From a bacterium (GTDB lineage Bacteria; Bacteroidota; Ignavibacteria; Kapaibacteriales; UBA2268): a DNA stretch of 64,000 nt. Location of the stretch: contig JAZDIP010000104.1 in assembly GCA_043804925.1 (NCBI GenBank), positions 63,538-127,537 of the forward strand. Reading direction: 5' to 3'. Position numbers and translations under genes: made by a program. The number at the start of each line of letters is the position of its first letter. Position 1 is the stretch's first letter. The notes below the pieces were generated by a model. The model saw only the letters and a list, made by a program, of their open reading frames with translations, was not told where the DNA came from and made no database searches. Positions 1 to 11,232 of this stretch are shown piece by piece.

Positions 1-530
1 GAACCGCCTCGGATATATAGTCCGCTCGAAATTTGAGAAGACGTCAATACTCCCGGAAGATACTGCAAAGACCTGAAAACATCTGCTTCCCCTCCTATCC
101 TGATTTCCTTAAGTTGTTGAACGGGTATATTGACTTTGCTAATGGATATTTCTCGTTTTTCATTTTCTCTTTCAACTTCTACAACAACTTCGTCTGTCAT
201 AACCAATGAGGATGTTAACTGAAAATCCTGACGGACAGAATGACCTTTAGGAAATTCTATTGTATCCTTTTTTTTGTCATAACCTATCGAAGAAATTTCA
301 ACAATATATTTGCCGGGTTTTATATTCATAATCGAGAAGAAACCCAATTTGTTTGTATATGCACCTTTCCTGACATCTTTGACATAGACTGACACACCAA
401 TTAATGTTTCTTTTGTTTTGGAATCCACTACATAACCGCTCAGTCCCGAAAGATTGGCATCTACAGGATTTGACTTACCTATGTAAAAAACAAAATATAA
501 CAGTAAATATATATAAAATATTTTTTTCAA
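1..530 (-). CDS. TonB-dependent receptor, N-terminal part (signal peptide, carboxypeptidase-regulatory-like domain and the start of the plug). Partial: continues beyond the left edge of the window.
   Basis: Minus-strand translation from the TTG at 530 reads MKKIFYIYLLLYFVFY...GYVVDSKTKETLIGVSVYVKD...GYDKKKDTIEF...IRIGGEADVFRSLQYLPGV...GLYIRGG. This is the typical N-terminus of a CarbopepD_reg-type TonB-dependent receptor. It is absent from the ORF track because it is open at the window edge. Confidence 0.7.
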   Translation of the reverse strand, partial: MKKIFYIYLLLYFVFYIGKSNPVDANLSGLSGYVVDSKTKETLIGVSVYVKDVRKGAYTNKLGFFSIMNIKPGKYIVEISSIGYDKKKDTIEFPKGHSVRQDFQLTSSLVMTDEVVVEVERENEKREISISKVNIPVQQLKEIRIGGEADVFRSLQYLPGVLTSSQISSGLYIRGG

Positions 531-672
531 ACAATTTTCTTAGATTAATTTTCAATAAATTGAATTGACAAGATTTATATACGGTAAAAATGATAAAATG
601 TTTTAATAAGTATAAAAATGCAGTTTATTTTTTTTAATCAGTACTCCAAGAAAATATAAGTAATGTAACATT

Positions 673-699
673 TGTCATTCCGAACGTAGTGAGGAATCC
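673..699. repeat. Copy of the dispersed short hairpin repeat family TGTCATTCC-N13-GGAATCC (REP-like).
   Basis: The sequence is tgtcattccgaacgtagtgaggaatcc, with inverted arms ATTCC/GGAAT. Related copies lie at 11237, 16800, 25009 and 48039, with a partial copy at 44795. Confidence 0.6.
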
Positions 700-789
700 A
701 GTATTCATACGGTTCCTGTTATTCTTTACTTTTCTTCCTTTCGCTCCGAGTGTCATTTCTATAGTTTCAATAAGTTTAAAAAATCCAGT

Positions 790-830
790 TACACAGAGTT
801 CCACGGAGGATTCACGGAGTTCCACAGAGA
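790..830. repeat. CACAGAG-type tandem word repeat (tacacagagttccacggaggattcacggagttccacagagaag).
   Basis: Repeated CACAGAG/CACGGAG words. The same repeat class flanks the GxxExxY gene at 28299-28843 and occurs in the 44861-45220 repeat island. Confidence 0.6.
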
Positions 831-865
831 AGAATTTGAAGGGAAGAATAATGTATTATTCCAAT

Positions 866-1078
866 TTATACCTTATCTTTCTTTTGCATTTCGGAAAAAA
901 TCTCGATTACCTTTTCCTTGAATTCAATCTCCATATCCATTCGGTTAAGCATTTTTTCCAATTCTTTAATTCGTTTAAGAAGTTCTTCTTCGGTAGAATC
1001 ATTATTCAATTCCATTTCATCAACCATCATATTTATATTTGTATTTTCTCTCATCATTCTACATTTTTCACTATTCAT
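866..1078 (-). CDS. Hypothetical small acidic coiled-coil protein (70 aa); may be spurious.
   Basis: ORF in an otherwise repeat-filled intergenic stretch with a charged, heptad-like sequence (EELLKRIKELEKMLNRMDMEIEFKEKVIEIF). No recognisable family. Confidence 0.2.
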   Translation of the reverse strand: MNSEKCRMMRENTNINMMVDEMELNNDSTEEELLKRIKELEKMLNRMDMEIEFKEKVIEIFSEMQKKDKV

Positions 1079-1251
1079 TTTTCATTATTCACTAAACCTC
1101 CCGCTTGTGCTTGCGTTGCGAACAGCAGAAGGGCTATGAATAAGAACGTTAATTTTGTTACTGTGTTCATTGTTGACTCCTTGTTTATTTTGAAATATTT
1201 TTGTTTTCATATTAATAATTTATAATGGTTATCAATTTTTCTAATTAAATT

Positions 1252-2310
1252 TTACCAGAAACCATATTCAAACATTACTAATTTCTTAGAAATATTATCT
1301 CCCATTTTAGTATCTTCTTCAATTATGTATAGTGGTAATTTTCCATTATACAATATTTGAATGTTTTCCCAATACCTTGCTTTATCATCGTTTTGTAATA
1401 TAATCTCAACATCTTCATAAAATTCACATGTTGTCCAATTTATTTGAACCAATCTATTATCTTGATCATATATGAATTTTCTAATTTCGTATCGTTGACC
1501 GAGATAATCATCTTCATTGTTAAACAATATTCTGTAAATCTTTCGCCCAGAAGAATCATAATGATTATATGCTATTCTTTCACCTTTCGGATGAAAAAGA
1601 AAATCAAAAATATTATTTTCGTGGAAATAAACAGAAACAATATCCATATTCTGATTTAATTCATAAGTATATGTGTAATCATCAGAAATTTCTCTGATTA
1701 AGTAAAATTTCGAATTATTTGAATAAAATTCATTTGTTTCAGAACTTGCATTCCAATAAAAGGAAGAATCATTTGAAGTTGAAAATTCAGAGTCATAGTA
1801 ATTAAAATTTCTTGTTTTGATAATTATTGGATCTCCAACTTTAGAATCTATACGTTTAATAATTATATAATGTTTAAAATTATCATCATATTTTTCCCAA
1901 ATTTCATCAATTGAGTCTAAAATTTTAATATCAATACGTTTTGTAATTCTATTATCTTTAAAATCATAATCAAATCTTTTCCAAAATTCATTATCGGATT
2001 CGCCACCAATTTTTGATAAACATCCCTCCGAATTGAAATATAATATTGATGATGGATATTTAATAGTATCTTCTATGGTTGGATATACTGAAACACGAGT
2101 ATATTTAATCCATTTAATTTTTAATTCATTCATTTCATTAAAAATTGAAAAAGGAACAAGTCCATAACTATCTAATAAATAGTAAATATCTGAATTATAA
2201 TAATAACATAATTTATAATTATTTTGATTTCCTTCTGACGCGATAATTTTGTCTGTATTGAGAATAAATACAAACAAAATTAATACAGATATTGTAAAAT
2301 ATAATTTCAT
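1252..2310 (-). CDS. Secreted hypothetical protein with YD-repeat-like beta-rich repeats. Sits 10 bp downstream of the RHS core/CT gene, where an immunity or partner gene would be expected.
   Basis: N-terminal signal peptide MKLYFTISVLILFVFILNTDKIIASEG. Repeats of the form Y.YD..G..I (YNHYDSSGRKIYRILF, FIYDQDNRLVQINW). Paralogous in style to 25141..25908 and 54265..55632. Confidence 0.6.
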   Translation of the reverse strand: MKLYFTISVLILFVFILNTDKIIASEGNQNNYKLCYYYNSDIYYLLDSYGLVPFSIFNEMNELKIKWIKYTRVSVYPTIEDTIKYPSSILYFNSEGCLSKIGGESDNEFWKRFDYDFKDNRITKRIDIKILDSIDEIWEKYDDNFKHYIIIKRIDSKVGDPIIIKTRNFNYYDSEFSTSNDSSFYWNASSETNEFYSNNSKFYLIREISDDYTYTYELNQNMDIVSVYFHENNIFDFLFHPKGERIAYNHYDSSGRKIYRILFNNEDDYLGQRYEIRKFIYDQDNRLVQINWTTCEFYEDVEIILQNDDKARYWENIQILYNGKLPLYIIEEDTKMGDNISKKLVMFEYGFW

Positions 2311-2319
2311 CGTTAATAA

Positions 2320-3843
2320 CTATTCGTTTGGTGGTATAATTGGCTGATAAATTGTTCCATTTTTATAATTTTGATTTTGTCTAACTCCTCTTATATAATC
2401 AATAGTCTTATCAGATACACCTGGACTTGAATTTGTAGGATTATTATTTTCAATTGCTGTTTCAAAAATATTATTATTAGTTTCGAAAGCATTATGATGT
2501 TCATCTGCCGAATTAATTTTTTTCGGATCAATTATATACCCTGAATATGGAATTTTGGATTGTATTGGTCCATAGCTATGGTAATGAAATTCATGAATAA
2601 CATTTGCAGCATTTCTACGAACATCACTGATTGAACTCAATTCATTAGCTGGATCATATATTTGGTCAAAGAAAAAATCACCTATAAAAGTTTGTGCTCC
2701 AGTGCCAGTACTAAAAATTACTACATCGTGTGTCTTTCCAGGTGCCAAAGCGACAGGTTGAGTATAACTTATTGTTGATGGCACTCTTTCGTATTGAGAA
2801 CTATTATACTTTGTAAGATCAAAAGTATTTGTATTTGGATCGTAAACTCGATAACCAGGTAATTTAACATTAGTCATGGTTCCTCCTGCAATTCCTGGAC
2901 CTAAATCTGCGGTAAAAACATATAAATGATTGTCGGGATTATTAATATAATAAGATATTGGATTTGCTGTTTGTATTTGAATATCAATATAATTTGCAAC
3001 ATCTAATGCCATATAAACATTTTGATTATTATTATACATAAATATATACTCTCCATTTTTATCTACAGCCCATATTGGTGAATTTCCAGCAAATTGATAT
3101 GGAGATAGCATAGGATAACTCTTAGTAAGAGGGTCAATACTCAAAAACCTCCCTACACGTGAATCATACATTCTTGCACCGAAGTCGAGCGAGTTTCCTT
3201 CTCCCTTTAATTTGTCGTCTTTTTCCATACCGTTGAATCCGAATCGGTAGCTTTCGCCGCTGTAAAACAATCCGGGTTGCAACATTCCGAAAGGATAATA
3301 ATTGCTGATTGCTACAAGGTCTGCATCGAATGGCTTCTTTGTTGCTCTTGGAGTGTCGTTGTCGTTGAATAGGTAATAATCCGAGAGCGGGTCAAATACA
3401 TTCGACAGCTTTAAGTCGGTGAACACTACCCTGACATTGCCCAAATGGTCTTTTAGCTCGTAATTTTTGAATCTCAATCTTCTTTCCTCAATATCGCTGT
3501 AAAGCTGGATTTGAGGATTCAAGTAATATACGGTATTCTGCGATTTACGTATGCAAAAACGTCCATGGCTTCCCGAACCGTAAATATGCCACTCACTCAA
3601 AGAAGGCATCCTTGCAGCACCTCCACCGTTAAGCCAATCCATCAGGTCGTCCAAATCATCGCCTTCGGGTAAAGTCCAAGTCATATATGGTCCCGTTTCG
3701 GAACTGGAATGAGTAGAAAAAATATTGTCTATTGAAGCAACAGCCGTATTAATATTATCATCAGGAACGGGTTTATCCGGTTGATTCCACTGGTACCATC
3801 CGTCATCCAAAATATTTTCCCTATACAATTCATAAATCGCCAT
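2320..3843 (-). CDS. RHS repeat-associated core domain protein with a ~270-aa C-terminal domain of unknown family (putative polymorphic-toxin CT). An orphan module lacking the long YD-repeat shell.
   Basis: One terminal YD repeat, then the Rhs core block ELKDHLGNVRVVF..YYPFGM..YRFGFNGMEKDDKLKGEGNSLDFGARMYDSRVGRFLSIDPL..YQFAGNSPIWAVDKNGE, then a C-terminal region with no known motif. The gene upstream is a dCMP deaminase, not an rhs body. Confidence 0.7.
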   Translation of the reverse strand: MAIYELYRENILDDGWYQWNQPDKPVPDDNINTAVASIDNIFSTHSSSETGPYMTWTLPEGDDLDDLMDWLNGGGAARMPSLSEWHIYGSGSHGRFCIRKSQNTVYYLNPQIQLYSDIEERRLRFKNYELKDHLGNVRVVFTDLKLSNVFDPLSDYYLFNDNDTPRATKKPFDADLVAISNYYPFGMLQPGLFYSGESYRFGFNGMEKDDKLKGEGNSLDFGARMYDSRVGRFLSIDPLTKSYPMLSPYQFAGNSPIWAVDKNGEYIFMYNNNQNVYMALDVANYIDIQIQTANPISYYINNPDNHLYVFTADLGPGIAGGTMTNVKLPGYRVYDPNTNTFDLTKYNSSQYERVPSTISYTQPVALAPGKTHDVVIFSTGTGAQTFIGDFFFDQIYDPANELSSISDVRRNAANVIHEFHYHSYGPIQSKIPYSGYIIDPKKINSADEHHNAFETNNNIFETAIENNNPTNSSPGVSDKTIDYIRGVRQNQNYKNGTIYQPIIPPNE

Positions 3844-3880
3844 AATTTTCCCGTTAGCATCTCTTGAATAATAAGTAATT

Positions 3881-3943
3881 TTACATTCTACATTTTACAT
3901 TATTTCCAAAACCCTATACCCAATACCCTAAACCCTATTCAAA
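3881..3943. repeat. Heptamer word-repeat spacer: the reverse complement of (AATGTAR)n followed by CCCTAWA-like words.
   Basis: The sequence is ttacattctacattttacattatttcc aaaaccctatacccaatacccta aaccctatt. It belongs to the same word family as 14198-14326 and 45121-45163. Confidence 0.6.
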
Positions 3944-4482
3944 GAAACCGCTCCTGCTTCATGTATAATCCCATTCATATAAATTTCGGGAATGACAATC
4001 TCACAGGTAATGAAATTAAGTGTAATACCTGCTTCAACAAACATTTCCTTTGTCCGGTTGTAAGATTCAAGCCATTTACCATTTGTATGCTTGTCGTAAA
4101 AATCCTGTCCGTCTTGATGGATTACCACTTCCGAAATTCCGCATTGGATAATAGCCCTGGCACAATCGGTGCAGGGCATCCATGGTACATATAGTTTGCA
4201 TTCTTTGAGCATGATTCCACGTCTTGCAGCATTGTATATGGCATTTCTTTCGGCATGTTCCATCCAAAAGTATTTTTCTCCACCTTCACGCGAAAGCCGC
4301 TTTTGCTCGTCATCAATTTCAATTCCTCTCGGCAAAGAATTATATCCAGTCGAAACGAGTATATTATCGTGGTCAACAATAACGGAGCCTACATGTGTGT
4401 GTCCGTCCTTGCTTCTCATTCCAACGAGGTAGCACATAGTAATATATAGTTGGTCCCAGTCCGGTCTTTTTATTTCGTTCAT
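3928..4482 (-). CDS. dCMP (deoxycytidylate) deaminase, zinc-dependent cytidine/deoxycytidylate deaminase family.
   Basis: HAERNAI and PCTDCARAI zinc-binding motifs (H-A-E ... P-C-x2-C), length 184 aa. Confidence 0.8.
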   Translation of the reverse strand: MNEIKRPDWDQLYITMCYLVGMRSKDGHTHVGSVIVDHDNILVSTGYNSLPRGIEIDDEQKRLSREGGEKYFWMEHAERNAIYNAARRGIMLKECKLYVPWMPCTDCARAIIQCGISEVVIHQDGQDFYDKHTNGKWLESYNRTKEMFVEAGITLNFITCEIVIPEIYMNGIIHEAGAVSLNRV

Positions 4483-4554
4483 ATTAAAAAATTAATAATT
4501 GAAACATACGTCAAAATCAAAAATAACTATTATTTAAATATATGGATTGTAAAT

Positions 4555-5430
4555 ATGAAAAAAATTATCCTGATTTTATCTTTTGCAATTTCTGCATTGC
4601 TTATTTCATGCGTGTCAGCAGGAAAATATGATGAAATGGTTTACAGCCGTGATTCCTTGCAGATTCTTTACGATTCTGCCGAAAAAGTCATTGAACAAAA
4701 TAATATCCGTATTGACCAGCAAGAAAAATTGATTGCCGACCTTGAAAAACGATTACGTGATATGGAAGTGGATTTATTTAACACAAAAGATAATTATGCC
4801 AAATTAAAAGAAAATAGCTCAACAAATACCCGCGATATGATGGATAACATCGAAAAACTTCAAAGAACCATTGCCGACAAGCAAAGAGAAATGCTGGAGT
4901 TTCAGGACAAGTATAACCAAATCCAAAGCAAACTCAAAGCCCGTGAAGAAGCAATGGATAAGCTACGCAATAAGCTTCAAAAAGCATTACTTGGCTTCGC
5001 AGACAAAGGTATGACAGTATCTATTCAAAATGGGAAAGTTTATGTCTCGCTGTCTAATCAGTTGCTTTTTAGCACCGGCTCAACGGATATTGACCAAAAA
5101 GGCAAGGAAGCACTTCTCGAACTTGCAAAAGTGCTGAATGAACAACCGGATATTAATATTTTAGTCGAAGGGCATACTGATAACCAGCAGATTCGTCCCG
5201 GAGGCAGATTTAAAGACAATTGGGATTTAAGCGTTATGCGTTCTACGGAAGTCATTCGCTATCTTACTCAAGAAGGACAGGTTGACCCATTGAGAATAAC
5301 ATCTTCAGGCAAAGGCGAATACTATCCAATCGAAAAAGGTGATACTCCTGAAATTCGTGCTGTTAACAGAAGAACTGAAATAATATTAAGTCCTAAACTT
5401 GAAGAATTGCTTGATATAATTAATGAATAA
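4555..5430 (+). CDS. OmpA-family lipoprotein with a central coiled-coil region and a C-terminal OmpA/MotB peptidoglycan-binding domain.
   Basis: Lipoprotein signal MKKIILILSFAISALLISC. Long coiled coil, then C-terminal NILVEGHTDNQ...NWDLSVMRSTEVIRYL...NRRTEIIL. The ATG at 4555 is preferred over the ORF-track alternative start at 4450. Confidence 0.8.
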   Translation: MKKIILILSFAISALLISCVSAGKYDEMVYSRDSLQILYDSAEKVIEQNNIRIDQQEKLIADLEKRLRDMEVDLFNTKDNYAKLKENSSTNTRDMMDNIEKLQRTIADKQREMLEFQDKYNQIQSKLKAREEAMDKLRNKLQKALLGFADKGMTVSIQNGKVYVSLSNQLLFSTGSTDIDQKGKEALLELAKVLNEQPDINILVEGHTDNQQIRPGGRFKDNWDLSVMRSTEVIRYLTQEGQVDPLRITSSGKGEYYPIEKGDTPEIRAVNRRTEIILSPKLEELLDIINE

Positions 5431-5691
5431 AAAACCAAGAACTTACTTCGATGTGATAACCAAAATTGCCGCTAGTTTTTTTGAGCTCAATTAATAATAA
5501 TGTTATTAATAAAAGATTCTCCCGGGAAAAAACACAATTTATACAATTCTTTAAAGATTATTGTTGATTGTCTTAAATTTATTTTAATTAATTGCTTTTT
5601 TGTTTTAAAATATGTAATTTGATTTTATGAACAATTGCAATTTGTGTATGAATTAAATAGGTTTTATTCAATTATATTTTCGAGGTAATAT

Positions 5692-6102
5692 ATGATACTT
5701 TCTAATCGTATAGGTTTTTTTTCAAAATTATTTGCAATTATTATATCTTTATTGATTTTTATTCAACCGTTAGCGGCACAAGAGCCGGATACCGATAAAG
5801 ATAAAAAAGTGGACTATTCCCAGGTTTGCGACCAAGCTAAAAAAGATGCCGCAGATGACGAAGGTTCGGCTTTGGGCTATGGAGCCGGTGGTTTTCTTTG
5901 TGGTATTTTTGGTTGGTTGTTTGCTGAATTAAGTAGCCCCAGAGCTCCCAGTGCAAAATTTATCGGGAAAGATGCAACTTATGCCAAGGCATATAGTTCT
6001 TGTTACGAGAAAAAAGCTAAAAGCATAAGACGTACTTCTGCTTGTGTCGGATGGGCAATAGGTTCAACTCTGTCACTTGTTCTCATCTATGGAGGTCAAT
6101 AG
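5692..6102 (+). CDS. Small secreted/membrane protein with a glycine-zipper transmembrane segment and conserved cysteines. First gene of the 5-gene envelope operon.
   Basis: Signal peptide; GYGAGGFLCGIFGWLF GxxxG-rich helix; an RBS-like gaggtaatat precedes the ATG. Confidence 0.5.
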   Translation: MILSNRIGFFSKLFAIIISLLIFIQPLAAQEPDTDKDKKVDYSQVCDQAKKDAADDEGSALGYGAGGFLCGIFGWLFAELSSPRAPSAKFIGKDATYAKAYSSCYEKKAKSIRRTSACVGWAIGSTLSLVLIYGGQ

Positions 6103-6142
6103 TTAGTTGCTTAATTCAAAAACAATTAACTTTAATATTATA

Positions 6143-6883
6143 ATGGCACTGAAAGTTAAAACACTAAAGATAATAACAATTCTATTGTTTTTTAGTGTTT
6201 TAACTTTTAAAGTTTTTTCCGAAAGCAATCAATTTGTTCCTTTTCAAACCTTTTCAGCGGATTTCCAACGGGAGACTATTGAAAATGGCGAATTACTTTT
6301 TACAACAGGAAAAATTTTTTTTTACAAGCCGTACAATGTCTTTATAGATGTGAGTGAACCGCTTAATCAAAAGATGCTCATTGATAGTAACCTTATGCTG
6401 ATTTACTACCCTGATGAAAATAAGGGTTTAAAAATCTCCTCCCAGGAGCCGCTTGCATTACCTATACTTTCTCCTTTTTTTTCGTCAACAAAAAGTGATT
6501 TCGGATTATCAATAATTGGATATTCTATTAAAGATTATTCTATGAATTCAGATACATTATCAACTAAGTGGTCAATTCCTGATCAAATTGATGATAATTC
6601 TTACTTCTTTGAAATAAAAACCGTAAATAATAGGATTATTGAAGTTCTTGTCTCAAAAGCAAAAAAAAACCTTTTAATTAAAAGGATGATTTTTAGTACT
6701 TATGTAGAATTGAGTAAAGAACTTTGGATTCCACAGGAACTGGTGATTTATGATAATGAAAATGCTGGGCAGATTGTTGAAAGCATAGCTTTAAAAAATA
6801 TTATGCTCGATATTGAATTGCCTGATTCGATATTGAAATTCATTATTCCTGAAAATGCCGAAACCGAGGAAATTCAATGGTAA
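6143..6883 (+). CDS. LolA-like (outer-membrane lipoprotein carrier/sorting fold) secreted protein.
   Basis: Signal peptide MALKVKTLKIITILLFFSVLTF. FQTFSADFQRETIENGELLFTTGKIFFYKPYNVFIDV..LMLIYYPDENKGL resembles the LolA/LppX-like half-barrel signature. The ORF-track start at 6107 is a TTG; the ATG at 6143 is more likely. Confidence 0.5.
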   Translation: MALKVKTLKIITILLFFSVLTFKVFSESNQFVPFQTFSADFQRETIENGELLFTTGKIFFYKPYNVFIDVSEPLNQKMLIDSNLMLIYYPDENKGLKISSQEPLALPILSPFFSSTKSDFGLSIIGYSIKDYSMNSDTLSTKWSIPDQIDDNSYFFEIKTVNNRIIEVLVSKAKKNLLIKRMIFSTYVELSKELWIPQELVIYDNENAGQIVESIALKNIMLDIELPDSILKFIIPENAETEEIQW

Positions 6884-7332
6884 CGAAAATATTATATTAC
6901 CCAAAATTTTATGCCGGCTATTTATCAATATTTATCACCATTTTGATACTTTTATTTTTTTCTTCTCATCTTAAAGCAGATGACAATTTAGATTTTTTAT
7001 TAAGATGCTATGATAGTAGTGCTGTTAATTTGTCAATAAATGATACATCACAAAAATTGTATGCATACAATCCTCTTAGCTTTTTAGGATTGGGATTAAT
7101 ACGATTCTACCAGAATTTTTTGTCAACTCAGGATGAGCCGGTTTGTAATTTTACTCTTAGTTGTTCTGCTTTTGGAGTAGAAGCTATTAAAAATAGGGGA
7201 TTCTTCTACGGTATTCTATTAACTGCCGACAGATTAACTCGTTGTAATAGTTTGACTAAATACGAATATCATATTGATAGGTACAGCGATAGAGCCATTG
7301 ATAATGTTCCAATATACTATTTTAACAAATGA
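6877..7332 (+). CDS. YidD-like (PF01809 haemolytic domain / membrane protein insertion efficiency factor family) paralog with an extra ~60-aa N-terminal signal/TM extension.
   Basis: GLGLIRFYQNFLSTQDEPVCNFTLSCSAFGVEAIKNRGFFYGILLTADRLTRCN matches the YidD core LIRFYQ.FIS...C.F.P.CS.Y..EAI...G...G..L...R..RC. It overlaps the upstream gene by 7 bp and has a GAGGA RBS. Confidence 0.65.
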   Translation: MVTKILYYPKFYAGYLSIFITILILLFFSSHLKADDNLDFLLRCYDSSAVNLSINDTSQKLYAYNPLSFLGLGLIRFYQNFLSTQDEPVCNFTLSCSAFGVEAIKNRGFFYGILLTADRLTRCNSLTKYEYHIDRYSDRAIDNVPIYYFNK

Positions 7333-8216
7333 ATCATCTGCAAAATATTGTCATCTGGTTTTTCGTGCTTGTTTTAGGATATAATTTAACAGCTCAGGAA
7401 AAAGATATTGATTTTAACTCTGATGAAAATATATTAAAGTTTGCAAACTTTTTATTTGATTCCGGAGAGTTCTACCGTGCAGCAAATGAATACGAAAGGT
7501 TTCTTTTTATAAAGGATAATAGGATTGACAGTATCGAGTACCGAATCGGTCTTTGTAATTTTTTCGATGACAAATTGGAAAAATCAATATCCAATTTTAA
7601 AAATACTATTGATAAGTCAGACGATTTTTCGATTAAAGTTCTTGCATTATTTCATAGTGTTTATGCATTAAACAAATTAAATCTGATTGATCAATCGGTT
7701 CTTTTTTATAATAACAACAGGGCAACAATATTTAAAGAAAGAAAACCGGACACAAGATTTGATATTTTGCTTGCATCAAATAATTTACTATTAAAAAACT
7801 GGGACCTAAGCAGAATTTTGATAAATAACTTTCCCGATAAAGGTGATTACTCAAAAGAAAAAGTTATCCTAAATAAGTTACTTGAAAAGGGTATTGATTT
7901 AAAGGAAAAAAATCCTTATCTGGCTGCAGGGCTGTCAACTATTATACCCGGATTAGGAAAAGTATATACAGGAAAAACTATTGACGGACTTTTTACTTTT
8001 CTGCTTCTCGGTTTCACGACCTGGCAGGCGTATGACGGATTTGCCGATGACGGAACAGCTTCAATTAAAGGGTGGCTTTTTTCAGGGATTGGTACTGTAT
8101 TTTATTTAGGAAATATTTATGGTTCATATATTGCGGTAAAAATAAAGAATAAAGAAATGTTTGATGAGTATAATACACAAATACATATTGAGCTTCGTAA
8201 GATTTTCGGCTATTAG
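7329..8216 (+). CDS. Secreted TPR-like protein with a C-terminal membrane segment carrying a PGLGKVYTG motif (DUF5683-like by recollection).
   Basis: Signal peptide; TPR-like helical repeats; C-terminal LSTIIPGLGKVYTGKTIDGLFTFLLLGF. 4-bp overlap with the upstream gene. Confidence 0.6.
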   Translation: MNHLQNIVIWFFVLVLGYNLTAQEKDIDFNSDENILKFANFLFDSGEFYRAANEYERFLFIKDNRIDSIEYRIGLCNFFDDKLEKSISNFKNTIDKSDDFSIKVLALFHSVYALNKLNLIDQSVLFYNNNRATIFKERKPDTRFDILLASNNLLLKNWDLSRILINNFPDKGDYSKEKVILNKLLEKGIDLKEKNPYLAAGLSTIIPGLGKVYTGKTIDGLFTFLLLGFTTWQAYDGFADDGTASIKGWLFSGIGTVFYLGNIYGSYIAVKIKNKEMFDEYNTQIHIELRKIFGY

Positions 8217-9075
8217 TCTAATTTTCACAATTCCGCTAATTTCCCAGAATGAGACAAAAAACAATCTCGATAAGATTTGGAGCTTTACCAAATCACTTGA
8301 AGAAAAATCTGATTTTGACCATGCAATTACCGAATACTTAAAGATTATTTGCTTTGCGGACAAAAAAGAAACTAGGGCTGAAGCATATTTTAGAATAGGA
8401 ATATGTTCAAGAGAATTGGGTTTGTGGAATAAAACTCATGAAGCATTCCAAAAAACACTTTTACTTTCTGAGTCGGATAGTTTAAAAATATTATGTAAAT
8501 TAACTGATGCGACAATTTTGATAGCTGAAGGACAATACGACAAGGCACAAATAAATATTCTTATGATGATGTATTTAATACCAGCTGCCTTCAAAGAACA
8601 GGCAGTAATGATACTTATAACATCGTCCATCGTTCAGTATGACTTCAAAAAAACTAAAAAGTTTCTTGACGATTTCGGTTCTTCCATTGATAATAAAGTA
8701 TTATTAAAAAAGATGGATTCAATACTGATAATAATTAATCAGCATGAGACCAAGTCAGCATCGACTGCAAAATGGTTTTCCACTTTCTTGCCCGGTTTAG
8801 GTCAATTTTATGCGGGGGATTACCGAAATTCCGCTAATGCTTTTCTTTTGAATGCCATGAACTTTTCTGCAACTTGTCTTTATATTTATTATGGTGAATA
8901 TGGTAATGCACTGCTATACTTCGCATTTTTAACCGAAAGGTATTACTCAGGGAACCGCTTTCAGGCAGAACAATCGGTGATTAAATTTGAAAATTCATTT
9001 GCTAAAGAGAATGCAAAAAAGTTGTTGGAAATTATTAGAATTGAAAATACTAAGGTACAACCTTTGAATTTCTAA
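8161..9075 (+). CDS. Paralog of 7329..8216: TPR-like protein with C-terminal WFSTFLPGLGQFYAGDYRNSANAFLLNA membrane motif.
   Basis: Same architecture as the preceding gene. The ATG at 8161 overlaps the upstream gene by 56 bp; an in-frame TTG at 8191 giving MSFVRFSAISLIFTIPLISQ is an alternative start. Confidence 0.6.
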   Translation: MMSIIHKYILSFVRFSAISLIFTIPLISQNETKNNLDKIWSFTKSLEEKSDFDHAITEYLKIICFADKKETRAEAYFRIGICSRELGLWNKTHEAFQKTLLLSESDSLKILCKLTDATILIAEGQYDKAQINILMMMYLIPAAFKEQAVMILITSSIVQYDFKKTKKFLDDFGSSIDNKVLLKKMDSILIIINQHETKSASTAKWFSTFLPGLGQFYAGDYRNSANAFLLNAMNFSATCLYIYYGEYGNALLYFAFLTERYYSGNRFQAEQSVIKFENSFAKENAKKLLEIIRIENTKVQPLNF

Positions 9076-9192: not shown

Positions 9193-11232
9193 ATGGCAGA
9201 TGAGAAAAAGTTTATGCCTTTCGTTCCGGCAGAATCGAATATGGCAGAGTTTACGATTAAGGCGCTTCTGATAGGGCTAATATTGGCAGTTATACTTGGT
9301 GCCGCTAATGCATATCTTGGTCTTAAAGCGGGTATGACTATCGCCGCTACATATCCGGCGGCAGTCATCGGTATGGCTTTACTCAAGATTTTCAAAGGCT
9401 CGATATTAGAAGAGAACATGACAAGAACAGTTGGTTCCATCGGTGAATCTGTCGCCGCAGGAGCCATTTTTACAATCCCGGCATTTTACATTGCAGGACT
9501 TTGGGACCCATTCCTGACTTCCGAAACTTATATAACTGCAACATTGATACTCGTTTTCGGTGGTATTTTGGGTATCATGTTTGTTGCATTATTGCGAAGA
9601 GTTATGGTTGAAGATACCGACCTTCCATTTCCTGAATCTGTTGCTGCAGCAGAAATACACAAGACAGGACGTTCCGGCGGGAGCAGGTCAAAATTCCTTT
9701 TTGGTGCAATGATTGGCGGTGGAGTCGTCAAAGTTTTAACCCAATTACATATTGTCCCTCAGATATGGGAAAAATTCGTTATTTTTTCAAAACAGGTGGT
9801 TACAGGAACACCAATAGCAGGACAGGGCGGAATGCTTTTAAGTTCTCCCGGTATTAGCCCTGCATACATGGGTGTTGGGTATATAATCGGTCCACAACTT
9901 GCATCACTTAACTTTTCCGGTGGAATGTTGGCTTGGGGTTTATTGGCTCCAATAATTTTATATTTCCTTGCACCAAATCTCGATTTCGTCGAATGGGCAA
10001 ATATGCTTGTACTAAACAAAGGATTTTCGGAAGCCGAAGCTTGGGCTAAAGTTAACGACCCGCAATTTCAGATTATAGAAGTCTGGAAATATATCGTTCG
10101 TCCTATTGCAATAGGTGGTATGTTGGTTGGTGCTTCATTTACATTATTCAGAATGAGAAAAAGCTTAATTGCAGGTATTGTCCGCTCAGTCAACGATGTC
10201 AAAAAAGCCGCATCAGGAACGAGTGTTACTACAGATAGAACGGAAAAAGATATGCCTTTTACATGGATTATGTTCGGTATTCTGATTGTAGCTATTGCAA
10301 CATTTTTAATTACTTTTATGATTTTCAACACCACATTCCTGATTGCATTTGTTGCTTCAACTGTGATGATTATATTGGCATTTTTCTTTGCGGCAGTTTC
10401 AGGTTATTTAGTTGGTATAATGGGCTCGAGCAATAATCCAATCAGCGGATTGACCTTAACTGCACTTGTAGTAACGGCATTAATTTTGGTTATTTTGGGT
10501 GTAACTGCGGATTCCGGAGGTGTTGCGGCTGTATTGGGAGTTGCTGCTATTGTTTGTGTTTCTGCCGCAGTAGCAGGTGAAATGCTCCAGGATTTGAAAG
10601 CAGGACATATATTGGGTGGTACACCATGGAAAATGCAGATGGGCGATATCATCGGTGTCGTTCTTTCCGGTGTAGTTATGTTTGGAGTTTTGGCTTTTCT
10701 TAACGATGGCGATATTGCTATGGGACAAAAATTCGGTTATGACGGTGGTTTCGGCAGCAGGACACTTTCCGCTCCGCAAGCAGGATTAATGGCAATCCTA
10801 TCCAATGGAATTGTTGGCGGTCAAATGGCTTGGCCCCTAATTATTGTCGGTATGCTTATGGGAATCGGATTTATATTAATGCAGGTTAAAAGTCCTATGT
10901 TGGTTTCTGTCGGCATGTACTTGCCTTTGGAAACAACATTTGCAATTTTTGTAGGCGGCTTAATTAAAGGCATAGTTGACATGATGACTAAGAATAAGGG
11001 TTTTGCACCAAATCAACTTGCTAATATCGAAAACGTGGGAGTGCTGCTTGCCTCGGGCTTCATAGCCGGTGAAGCACTAATGGGATTAATCTTTGCCGGA
11101 CTTGCAGTCGGTGATATTATTCCTGATGCTGTCTGGCCCGGCTCACCGTTCTACCTTAGTTTGGTTGTTCTTGTAATAATCGGATATGTTTTAGTTCGGT
11201 TACCATTAAAGAATGCCGGAGCAAAAGAATAG
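9193..11232 (+). CDS. OPT-family oligopeptide transporter (about 16 predicted TM helices).
   Basis: 679 aa polytopic protein. The N-terminus FTIKALLIGLILAVILGAANAYLGLKAGMTIAATYPAAVIGMALLK is typical of bacterial OPT transporters. Confidence 0.75.
   Translation: MADEKKFMPFVPAESNMAEFTIKALLIGLILAVILGAANAYLGLKAGMTIAATYPAAVIGMALLKIFKGSILEENMTRTVGSIGESVAAGAIFTIPAFYIAGLWDPFLTSETYITATLILVFGGILGIMFVALLRRVMVEDTDLPFPESVAAAEIHKTGRSGGSRSKFLFGAMIGGGVVKVLTQLHIVPQIWEKFVIFSKQVVTGTPIAGQGGMLLSSPGISPAYMGVGYIIGPQLASLNFSGGMLAWGLLAPIILYFLAPNLDFVEWANMLVLNKGFSEAEAWAKVNDPQFQIIEVWKYIVRPIAIGGMLVGASFTLFRMRKSLIAGIVRSVNDVKKAASGTSVTTDRTEKDMPFTWIMFGILIVAIATFLITFMIFNTTFLIAFVASTVMIILAFFFAAVSGYLVGIMGSSNNPISGLTLTALVVTALILVILGVTADSGGVAAVLGVAAIVCVSAAVAGEMLQDLKAGHILGGTPWKMQMGDIIGVVLSGVVMFGVLAFLNDGDIAMGQKFGYDGGFGSRTLSAPQAGLMAILSNGIVGGQMAWPLIIVGMLMGIGFILMQVKSPMLVSVGMYLPLETTFAIFVGGLIKGIVDMMTKNKGFAPNQLANIENVGVLLASGFIAGEALMGLIFAGLAVGDIIPDAVWPGSPFYLSLVVLVIIGYVLVRLPLKNAGAKE

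Follow-up and report, generated by a model that had tools for sequence, protein, structure and literature searches.

Why would a YidD-family protein begin with a signal-peptide-like segment, and why would its gene lie among genes for tetratricopeptide repeat (TPR) proteins? The locus that raises this question is a block of five genes, here termed g1 to g5, in a 64-kb stretch of contig JAZDIP010000104.1 from a Kapaibacteriales bacterium (assembly GCA_043804925.1); the window below means that whole stretch. The third gene, g3, encodes the YidD-like protein, and g4 and g5 encode TPR proteins with a C-terminal membrane-type domain. We conclude with high confidence that the block is a conserved envelope module in which an exported YidD-family domain is functionally coupled to a TPR-membrane protein. 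The decisive evidence consists of fusions between YidD, TPR and membrane-type domains and of a very wide distribution, both of which were missed by the first-pass annotation of the block, made from the letters of the window.

The YidD-like protein g3 and its family

To our knowledge, YidD is a very widespread small protein with one functional study and no solved structure. Profile searches place g3 well within this family, with 63.5 bits on Pfam PF01809 (cut-off 27) and 65.1 bits on TIGR00278 (cut-off 40), and the 62-residue core is 39% identical to E. coli YidD (E = 4e-15). E. coli YidD itself reaches 108 bits on the Pfam model, compared with 54-85 bits for the g3-type group. The core pattern LIRFYQ..C.F..CS..EAI..G...G..L...R..RC, on which the first-pass annotation had based its YidD assignment, is found in g3, which has the amphipathic (L)IR.YQ helix, the C-x5-CS and R-C elements and all three cysteines of canonical YidD (LIRFYQNFLSTQDEPVCNFTLSCSAFGVEAIKNRGFFYGILLTADRLTRC). 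Across an alignment of 48 orthologs C90 and C96 never vary, and C123 is kept in at least 90% of the sequences; TIGR00278 is matched by all 48. A sequence search of the PDB with the g3 family profile gave no meaningful match.

What precedes the core sets g3 apart. The product of E. coli yidD (b4557) has 85 residues and no signal peptide, whereas g3 is about twice as long. The N-terminal extension of about 60 residues that had been described is real, and comprises a signal-peptide-like segment followed by a conserved helix (Table 1). A hydrophobic N-terminal segment occurs in 66 of 77 g3 orthologs, with basic residues before it and acidic residues trailing it in those inspected, and by hydropathy g3 holds no further hydrophobic segment. 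The family order is the hydrophobic segment, 'DLxFI..NP', 'ETSELKL' and then the YidD core, for which the consensus reads 'GLIR.YQ.FISSQD.P.CNF.PSCS.FG..AI..YG...G.LLTADRL.RCN'; the stretches ISSQD.P.CNF..SCS and LLTADRL.RCN form a signature that differs from canonical YidD. Canonical YidD is a small protein (~70-100 residues) of the cytoplasmic face without a signal peptide, and g3 departs from this: because of its signal-peptide-like N-terminus it is predicted on the opposite membrane face. Its activity at the membrane surface is probably similar.

The gene neighbourhood differs as well. In E. coli, yidD lies in the order rpmH-rnpA-yidD-yidC (PMC10502375), a neighbourhood that we confirmed around b4557. 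The first-pass annotation had rightly called the present context non-canonical: instead of standing in rpmH-rnpA-yidD-yidC(-mnmE), g3 has a TPR-membrane gene as its neighbour in the window, as it does in 72 of the 80 related loci, and no linkage to an rnpA or yidC family was found either in the window or across those loci. No second yidD occurs within the 64-kb window.

NCBI already names g3 YidD. Since every aligned ortholog matches TIGR00278, an 'equivalog' model, annotation pipelines will call such proteins YidD, and this naming is likely a systematic over-annotation. We argue that g3 should not be treated as a functional equivalog, because two canonical features fail, namely the signal-peptide-free protein of the cytoplasmic face and the rnpA-yidC context. 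The name, the equivalog cut-off passed by g3 and its 48 orthologs, and the lack of another yidD in the window would also suit an ordinary YidD that has acquired an N-terminal anchor and works with YidC from the cytoplasmic side, its neighbours being unrelated envelope genes. We regard this as quite improbable. The N-terminal charge pattern is that of an exported protein or of an N-in signal, which places the domain outside; the family's own signature (ISSQD.P.CNF, LLTADRL and the upstream DLxFI) is common to different phyla; the context is without rnpA and yidC, unlike E. coli; and both the adjacency to g4 across phyla and the fusions behind a single signal peptide, described next, speak against it.

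Fusion, co-occurrence and distribution

The coupling of g3 to g4 is seen most directly in fused proteins. A g4 search gave 80 homologs, and seven of them are YidD fusions of about 380-440 residues with PF01809 (P0067, P0070, P0072, P0079, P0083, P0085 and P0087), of which P0070 comes from an Endomicrobia metagenome-assembled genome (MAG). In P0070 and P0079 a Pfam search bore out the YidD domain. All but P0079 share the order signal peptide, YidD, variable linker, TPR and C-terminal domain, and these six retain the family motifs PGxGK.Y.G...DG and YxGNIYGS. L072, from a Krumholzibacteriia MAG, adds another fused gene. The fused proteins have one signal peptide ahead of both the YidD and the TPR domain, with no hydrophobic helix between these, whereas the split genes encode one signal peptide each. 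Genes of the g1 and g2 type still flank the fusions, although in one case g2 has moved downstream. An AlphaFold2 (AF2) model of P0070, with a mean predicted local distance difference test score (pLDDT) of 86.9, is moderately confident over the YidD part and disordered in the linker (residues 98-116, pLDDT < 50); the TPR solenoid and the helices that follow it, two short ones at PGLGK and two long ones (310-332 and 336-384), are modelled with very high confidence.

Two unusual proteins turned up beside these. P0079 (378 residues, metagenome) has the order membrane domain-YidD-membrane domain, and its second membrane domain matches DUF5683 exactly at the cut-off of 26.7 bits. P0060 (512 residues, metagenome) is an apparent fusion of a g4-type and a g5-type protein with an internal signal-peptide-like segment; it could be a true fusion or an indel artefact of a 53-nt gene overlap. 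Each is a single metagenomic sequence and P0060 may be an artefact, so neither was used to fix topology. In the Endomicrobia MAG GCA_026416935.1 (L089) the arrangement g1-g2-[g3+g4 fusion] stands between two Pfam-less proteins (219-1121 and 3727-4524) of 300 and 265 residues, each with a signal peptide and with the last residues ...GFKF and ...IIYRF, respectively. Aromatic C-termini are typical of outer-membrane beta-barrels, and the two may be lineage-specific outer-membrane partners.

Gene order across genomes tells the same story for the split genes. Five family hidden Markov models (HMMs) were run on 80 named-genome loci around g4; the resulting counts are lower bounds, several loci lying at contig ends. 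A g3-type gene is present in 76 of the 80 loci and stands directly upstream of g4 in 72. Genes of the g2 type occur in 55 loci and adjoin g3 in 50 of them, g1-type genes occur in 36, and about 52 loci have a second TPR-membrane paralog in the flank. The complete set of five families is found in 20 loci, and the commonest architecture is g1-g2-g3-g4-g5 (19 of 80). The invariant core is g3 with g4, whereas g5, g2 and g1 are frequent partners. Domain fusion, combined with co-occurrence that does not depend on gene order, argues strongly for a joint physical action of g3 and g4.

The same five genes are collinear with the window, at 32-60% identity, in an Ignavibacteria MAG (L001) and a metagenome contig (L003), which bears out the expectation that the block would be conserved as a unit. 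Their junctions resemble those of the window (7 nt at g2/g3 and 53 nt at g4/g5, with 4 and 8 nt at g3/g4), and their flanks are wholly different, with a pyruvate:ferredoxin oxidoreductase (PFOR) gene in one and a two-component system in the other. A more distant contig of higher GC content (L005) keeps the YidD-like and g4-type genes alone, which again points to g3 and g4 as the core. The arrangement recurs across phyla with differing flanking genes and is therefore far beyond chance. When all flanking open reading frames (ORFs) were clustered, no other family appeared in more than 16 of the 80 loci; the module thus consists of five families, and the OmpA and OPT genes of the window are bystanders.

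The distribution is broad. A genome scan with a 12-sequence g4 alignment, counting one genome per species, found a g4-type protein in at least 580 species-level genomes, mostly from uncultured members of the Fibrobacteres-Chlorobi-Bacteroidetes (FCB) group and allied diderm phyla. Carriers include Poribacteria, WOR-3, Cloacimonadota, Zixibacteria, KSB1, Latescibacterota, Krumholzibacteriia, Gemmatimonadota and Aminicenantes, as well as Ignavibacteria, Kapaibacteria, several Bacteroidota and Spirochaetes. An exhaustive g4 profile search returned 4,618 representatives of 50%-identity clusters at E <= 1e-30, and the best 150 of them (all E <= 2e-67) include more than 100 full-length proteins of 254-330 residues. 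The module can also be duplicated within a genome: a Bacteroidota MAG contig (L077) bears two divergent copies, g2-g3-g4 at 82-2149 (-) and g3-g4-g4/5 at 3567-5603 (+).

This distribution bears on a suggestion of the first-pass annotation, that the block might sort cargo for the type IX secretion system (T9SS) or the outer membrane; a T9SS or gliding accessory would be a variant of the same idea. In its favour, T9SS is common in the FCB group, to which many carriers belong, and L001 encodes a Por_Secre_tail protein within a few kb of the block. Against it, no T9SS family accompanies the block across the 80 loci, none of the five products matches one, and MAGs of Poribacteria, Spirochaetes and Endomicrobia, groups in which we know of no T9SS, carry the module too. 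We therefore consider a role in type IX secretion very improbable, and that part of the first-pass annotation found no support.

Layout of the block and the partner proteins

The five ORFs, whose presence on one strand had been annotated correctly, follow one another closely (Table 1).

Table 1. Coordinates of the five genes, their domains and the intra-block stem-loop in the window.
Feature	Nucleotides	Residues	Strand	Description and basis
g1	5692-6102		+	ORF, 136 residues
g2	6143 (ATG, likelier) or 6107 (TTG) to 6883		+	ORF, 246 residues from ATG, 258 from TTG
g3	6877-7332		+	ORF, 151 residues, YidD family
g4	7329-8216		+	ORF, 295 residues, TPR and C-terminal membrane-type domain
g5	8164 (ATG) or 8161 (TTG) to 9075		+	ORF, 303 residues from ATG, 304 from TTG
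Stem-loop	6150-6209		+	3' of g1; inverted repeat and folding
g3 signal-peptide-like segment		1-35	+	Ends ...FFSSHLKA/DD; hydropathy
g3 'DLxF(I/L)' segment		~36-50	+	Conserved; alignment
g3 YidD core	7090-7269	72-131	+	Profile match; cysteines C90, C96, C123
g4 TPR domain		~24-190	+	After signal-peptide-like N-terminus
g4 C-terminal domain	7917-8141	~197-271	+	Helical, membrane-type

The overlaps of 7 nt (ATGGTAA) between g2 and g3, of 4 nt between g3 and g4 and of 56 nt between g4 and g5 agree with those first noted, the last shrinking to 53 nt if g5 starts at its ATG; the 5-bp gap reported between g1 and g2 proved to be 4 nt with the TTG start of g2, or 40 nt with its ATG. The 53-nt g4/g5 overlap is the same in the two closest orthologous loci, L001 and L003. 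Starts reading 'MV' are widespread among g3 orthologs; they mirror the ATGGTAA overlap with a g2 end of '...W*', and we therefore take translational coupling between g2 and g3 to be kept. A scan of the window for promoters and terminators gave counts at chance (20 against 19.3 and 2 against 1.6), so no operon boundaries can be assigned from it. All five products begin with a basic N-region, a hydrophobic core and acidic residues, in keeping with the view that every one of them is secreted or membrane-bound.

The C-terminal domains of g4 and g5 start with the motif that had been pointed out, PGLGKVYTG in g4 (P207 at nt 7947-7949) and PGLGQFYAG in g5 (P at nt 8791-8793). The g4-type invariant motifs are PGxGK.Y.G...DG and (F)YxGNIYGS; g5, which likewise consists of a signal peptide, a TPR domain and a C-terminal domain, carries ERYYSGN. 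Orthologs of g5 are 57% (L001) and 40% (L003) identical to it. The two genes are paralogs: g5 matches the g4 HMM at E = 4e-20, and g4 is ~24-26% identical to the g5 orthologs of L001 and L003 (E = 2e-9 and 7e-6). Their description as DUF5683-like holds for roughly the first 25 profile positions and fails as a family assignment, since the matches (12.7 bits for g4 and 16.9 for g5, cut-off 26.7) cover positions 2-27 of 151; DUF5683 is reached at E <= 0.01 by 4 of 35 g4-family members. As in DUF5683 (PF18935) and TM2-type domains, a 'PGxGQ/K.Y.G' helix starts the membrane domain, and two g4 homologs are labelled 'TM2 domain-containing membrane protein YozV' by the Joint Genome Institute (JGI), but neither g4 nor g5 has a Pfam TM2 match. 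A 100-residue protein with a true TM2 domain (PF05154) is encoded in L090 (3014-3316), ~1.5 kb downstream of a YidD-TPR fusion gene.

The TPR domains are built of tandem helix-turn-helix repeats that form a solenoid, and among envelope proteins their arm is closest to YfgM, CpoB/YbgF and BamD. This likeness opens a different explanation, in which the block would be an envelope-integrity device of the CpoB/YbgF, YfgM or BamD type: the TPR proteins would be central and bind partners in peptidoglycan synthesis, Tol-Pal, Sec or Bam, and the YidD-like protein and g1 would be membrane-binding accessories, with no cargo involved. The known proteins differ in several ways. YfgM (with PpiD at SecYEG), CpoB/YbgF and BamD are anchored by an N-terminal helix or a lipid, whereas g4 and g5 have a C-terminal multi-helix domain (PGLGK.Y.G ... 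GNIYGS); g4 and g5 show no sequence-level membership of those families; and their partners in the module are a YidD-like domain, a LolA-like protein and g1. The TPR similarity is moreover generic, none of the partner systems turned up in linkage with the block across the 80 loci, and the conserved LolA-like partner would be left unexplained. We judge this explanation unlikely.

The LolA-like partner is g2, which has a signal peptide, no other hydrophobic segment and about 220 mature residues. Its matches to the LolA/LolB clan are remote. NCBIfam NF000663 is matched at 23.7 bits (cut-off 120, E = 2.9e-5) and TIGR00547 at 21.2 bits (cut-off 112), and alignment to LolA is limited to the N-terminal ~70 residues. 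A profile of 51 g2 orthologs finds LolA alone in the PDB, weakly (8v1k at E = 0.045 and 2w7q at E = 0.09). Single members of this set match DUF4292 (11), LolA (3) or LolA_like (2), which we take to belong to one Pfam clan, and a homolog 64% identical to g2 (P0089) is named 'outer membrane lipoprotein-sorting protein' by JGI. The converging matches are thus consistent, if weakly, with g2 being a remote relative of the LolA/LolB clan. Export, mature length, a low-confidence model that is beta-rich, and profile and PDB matches to that clan alone are the points of likeness; scores below the cut-offs, the short alignment and the lack of linked LolCDE genes in the 80 loci are the points of difference. 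The first-pass name 'LolA-like' is accordingly right in direction and rests below threshold throughout: g2 cannot be filed as LolA, nor can g4 and g5 as DUF5683.

The remaining partner, g1, has hydrophobic segments at residues 60-78 and 117-135 after its signal-peptide-like N-terminus. The first of these is glycine-rich, and to that extent the earlier description of a glycine-zipper protein was apt; profile searches gave no match of g1 to a glycine-zipper family or to any other Pfam, NCBIfam or PDB entry. Orthologs are 60% (L001) and 49% (L003) identical, and an alignment of 32 sequences has the consensus A..DA..D..K.LW...G...P.PPA..L.GKS.EYV..YT.AYK.KA. In six Poribacteria loci (L012, L025, L010, L027, L041 and L044) two to five tandem g1-type copies of ~100-115 residues lie upstream of a g2-type gene; in Poribacteria loci of this kind the g5-type gene is often not adjacent, or is a few kb off (L018, L034 and L037).

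Two of the 32 g1 homologs weakly match a holin family, at E ~0.004. Passages of PMC3573977 state that B. subtilis YtjA lyses cells and that the name 'haemolytic domain' arose from this. Both points would fit a membrane-damaging or lysis device, with an exported 'haemolytic' YidD effector and g1 as a holin-like or immunity-like protein. Against it stand a single chromosomal copy with a housekeeping-like spread over many phyla, a YidD domain that is tethered to a TPR-membrane protein and not released, the absence, across the 80 loci, of any linkage to genes of mobile elements, toxin delivery or phages, and the faintness of the holin matches themselves. We find such a device highly improbable.

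The junction between g1 and g2 contains a stem-loop with perfect 17-nt arms (6152-6168 and 6191-6207) followed by a U-rich tract, and it overlaps the signal-peptide codons of g2. Folding of 6100-6220 gives a minimum free energy of -30.3 kcal/mol (z = -5.3), with 0 of 200 shuffled sequences as stable. Hairpins of unrelated sequence occupy the same junction in L001 (7178-7205) and L003 (7187-7213), and z falls below -2 at 41% of 37 g1-g2 junctions, as against 2% at g2-g3 and 1% at g3-g4. This bias suggests that expression of g1 differs from that of g2-g5; as an intra-operon attenuator or a 3'-stabiliser, the hairpin may set g1 at a stoichiometry of its own.

Within the window the block is flanked by genes for an OmpA/MotB-type protein (4450-5430) and an OPT transporter (9193-11232). 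Both were considered as members and rejected, since other loci show neither of them linked to the block. Further away, 2320-3843 (-) encodes a 507-residue protein with an RHS repeat-associated core at residues 182-264 (TIGR03696, 47.2 bits against 32.5), without a long RHS repeat region and with a C-terminal part of ~240 residues that has no assignment. Next to it, in a stretch of 24-28% GC, lies an ORF of 352 residues (1252-2310, -) with no family match. Taken together, the two resemble an orphan RHS-tip toxin cassette that may include an immunity gene.

A possible mechanism and its meaning

How might the five products work together? Passages in PMC8082313 and PMC3573977, which cite Yu et al. 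2011, report that YidD assists YidC/Sec-dependent insertion. In our proposal g4 and g5 would be anchored in the inner membrane and extend their TPR arms into the periplasm. They would probably form a heteromer, since they are adjacent paralogs that overlap by 53 nt and show one apparent fusion. The TPR arms would tether the YidD-like domain flexibly at the membrane's periplasmic face, where its amphipathic helix and three-cysteine core could serve as a membrane-active helper on the periplasmic leaflet, in parallel to the help that canonical YidD is thought to give on the cytoplasmic face. The putative LolA-fold protein g2 would take or deliver hydrophobic cargo, whether a lipoprotein, a lipid or a nascent membrane-protein segment. 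The sequences show the gene content, the synteny, the fusions, the membership of the YidD family, the signal-peptide-like N-termini and the unusual gene context; we infer the periplasmic location of the YidD-like and TPR domains, the anchoring in the inner membrane, the formation of a complex and the handling of cargo.

Several observations weigh against this proposal. The signal peptides were judged by hydropathy and charge alone. The C-terminal segments of g4 and g5 are rich in Gly, Ser and Tyr and moderately hydrophobic, just under the Kyte-Doolittle threshold, and the charge of the g4 membrane domain is ambiguous, with a net positive stretch before its first segment; its topology is thus not fixed and may comprise two membrane passes or three. 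Structural matches to the TPR domain are generic, as Rap phosphatases and eukaryotic TPR proteins score as well. For g2, the Pfam LolA match (17.7 bits, cut-off 23.6) is below threshold, and the AF2 model that looks beta-rich was built from a two-sequence alignment and has a pLDDT of 38.6. The 80 loci show no linkage of the block to a LolCDE-type ABC transporter, to YidC, Sec or Bam, or to any further known machinery, and the nature of the cargo is therefore a guess.

We grade the parts of the proposal accordingly. That this operon-like module of many phyla encodes an envelope complex with the mechanism outlined is put forward tentatively. The specific handling of cargo is more doubtful. Somewhat more speculative again is the reading of the module as a previously unrecognised envelope-biogenesis machine, with a YidD-type domain acting from the periplasmic side together with a LolA-fold carrier and a TPR scaffold; lipoproteins or other hydrophobic parts of the envelope would be its substrates, to be released, chaperoned or inserted. 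The phrase 'biogenesis or sorting module' used in the first-pass annotation is in this sense reasonable but unproven. Our literature search found no description of a DUF5683 function, of an exported or fused YidD, or of a YidD/TPR/LolA cluster, and g3 would represent an exported, TPR-tethered branch of YidD within an undescribed module.

What does such a branch mean for YidD and for the bacteria that carry it? In none of the loci seen does g3 accompany rpmH-rnpA-yidC; its usual companion is a TPR-membrane protein, to which it is sometimes fused, and such a branch would provide an independent handle on how the YidD fold acts at a membrane surface. The five-gene envelope module is present in hundreds of species of poorly known phyla, and three of its five families, namely g1, the g2 type and the membrane domain of g4 and g5, have no curated model. 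A module that combines LolA-like, YidD-like and TPR proteins is a concrete candidate for delivering lipoproteins or hydrophobic components to the outer membrane outside Proteobacteria. If the proposal is true, the module could, for example, supply part of the lipoprotein-trafficking function in lineages without LolB, and the YidD fold would be a general tool of the membrane interface and not an accessory specific to YidC.

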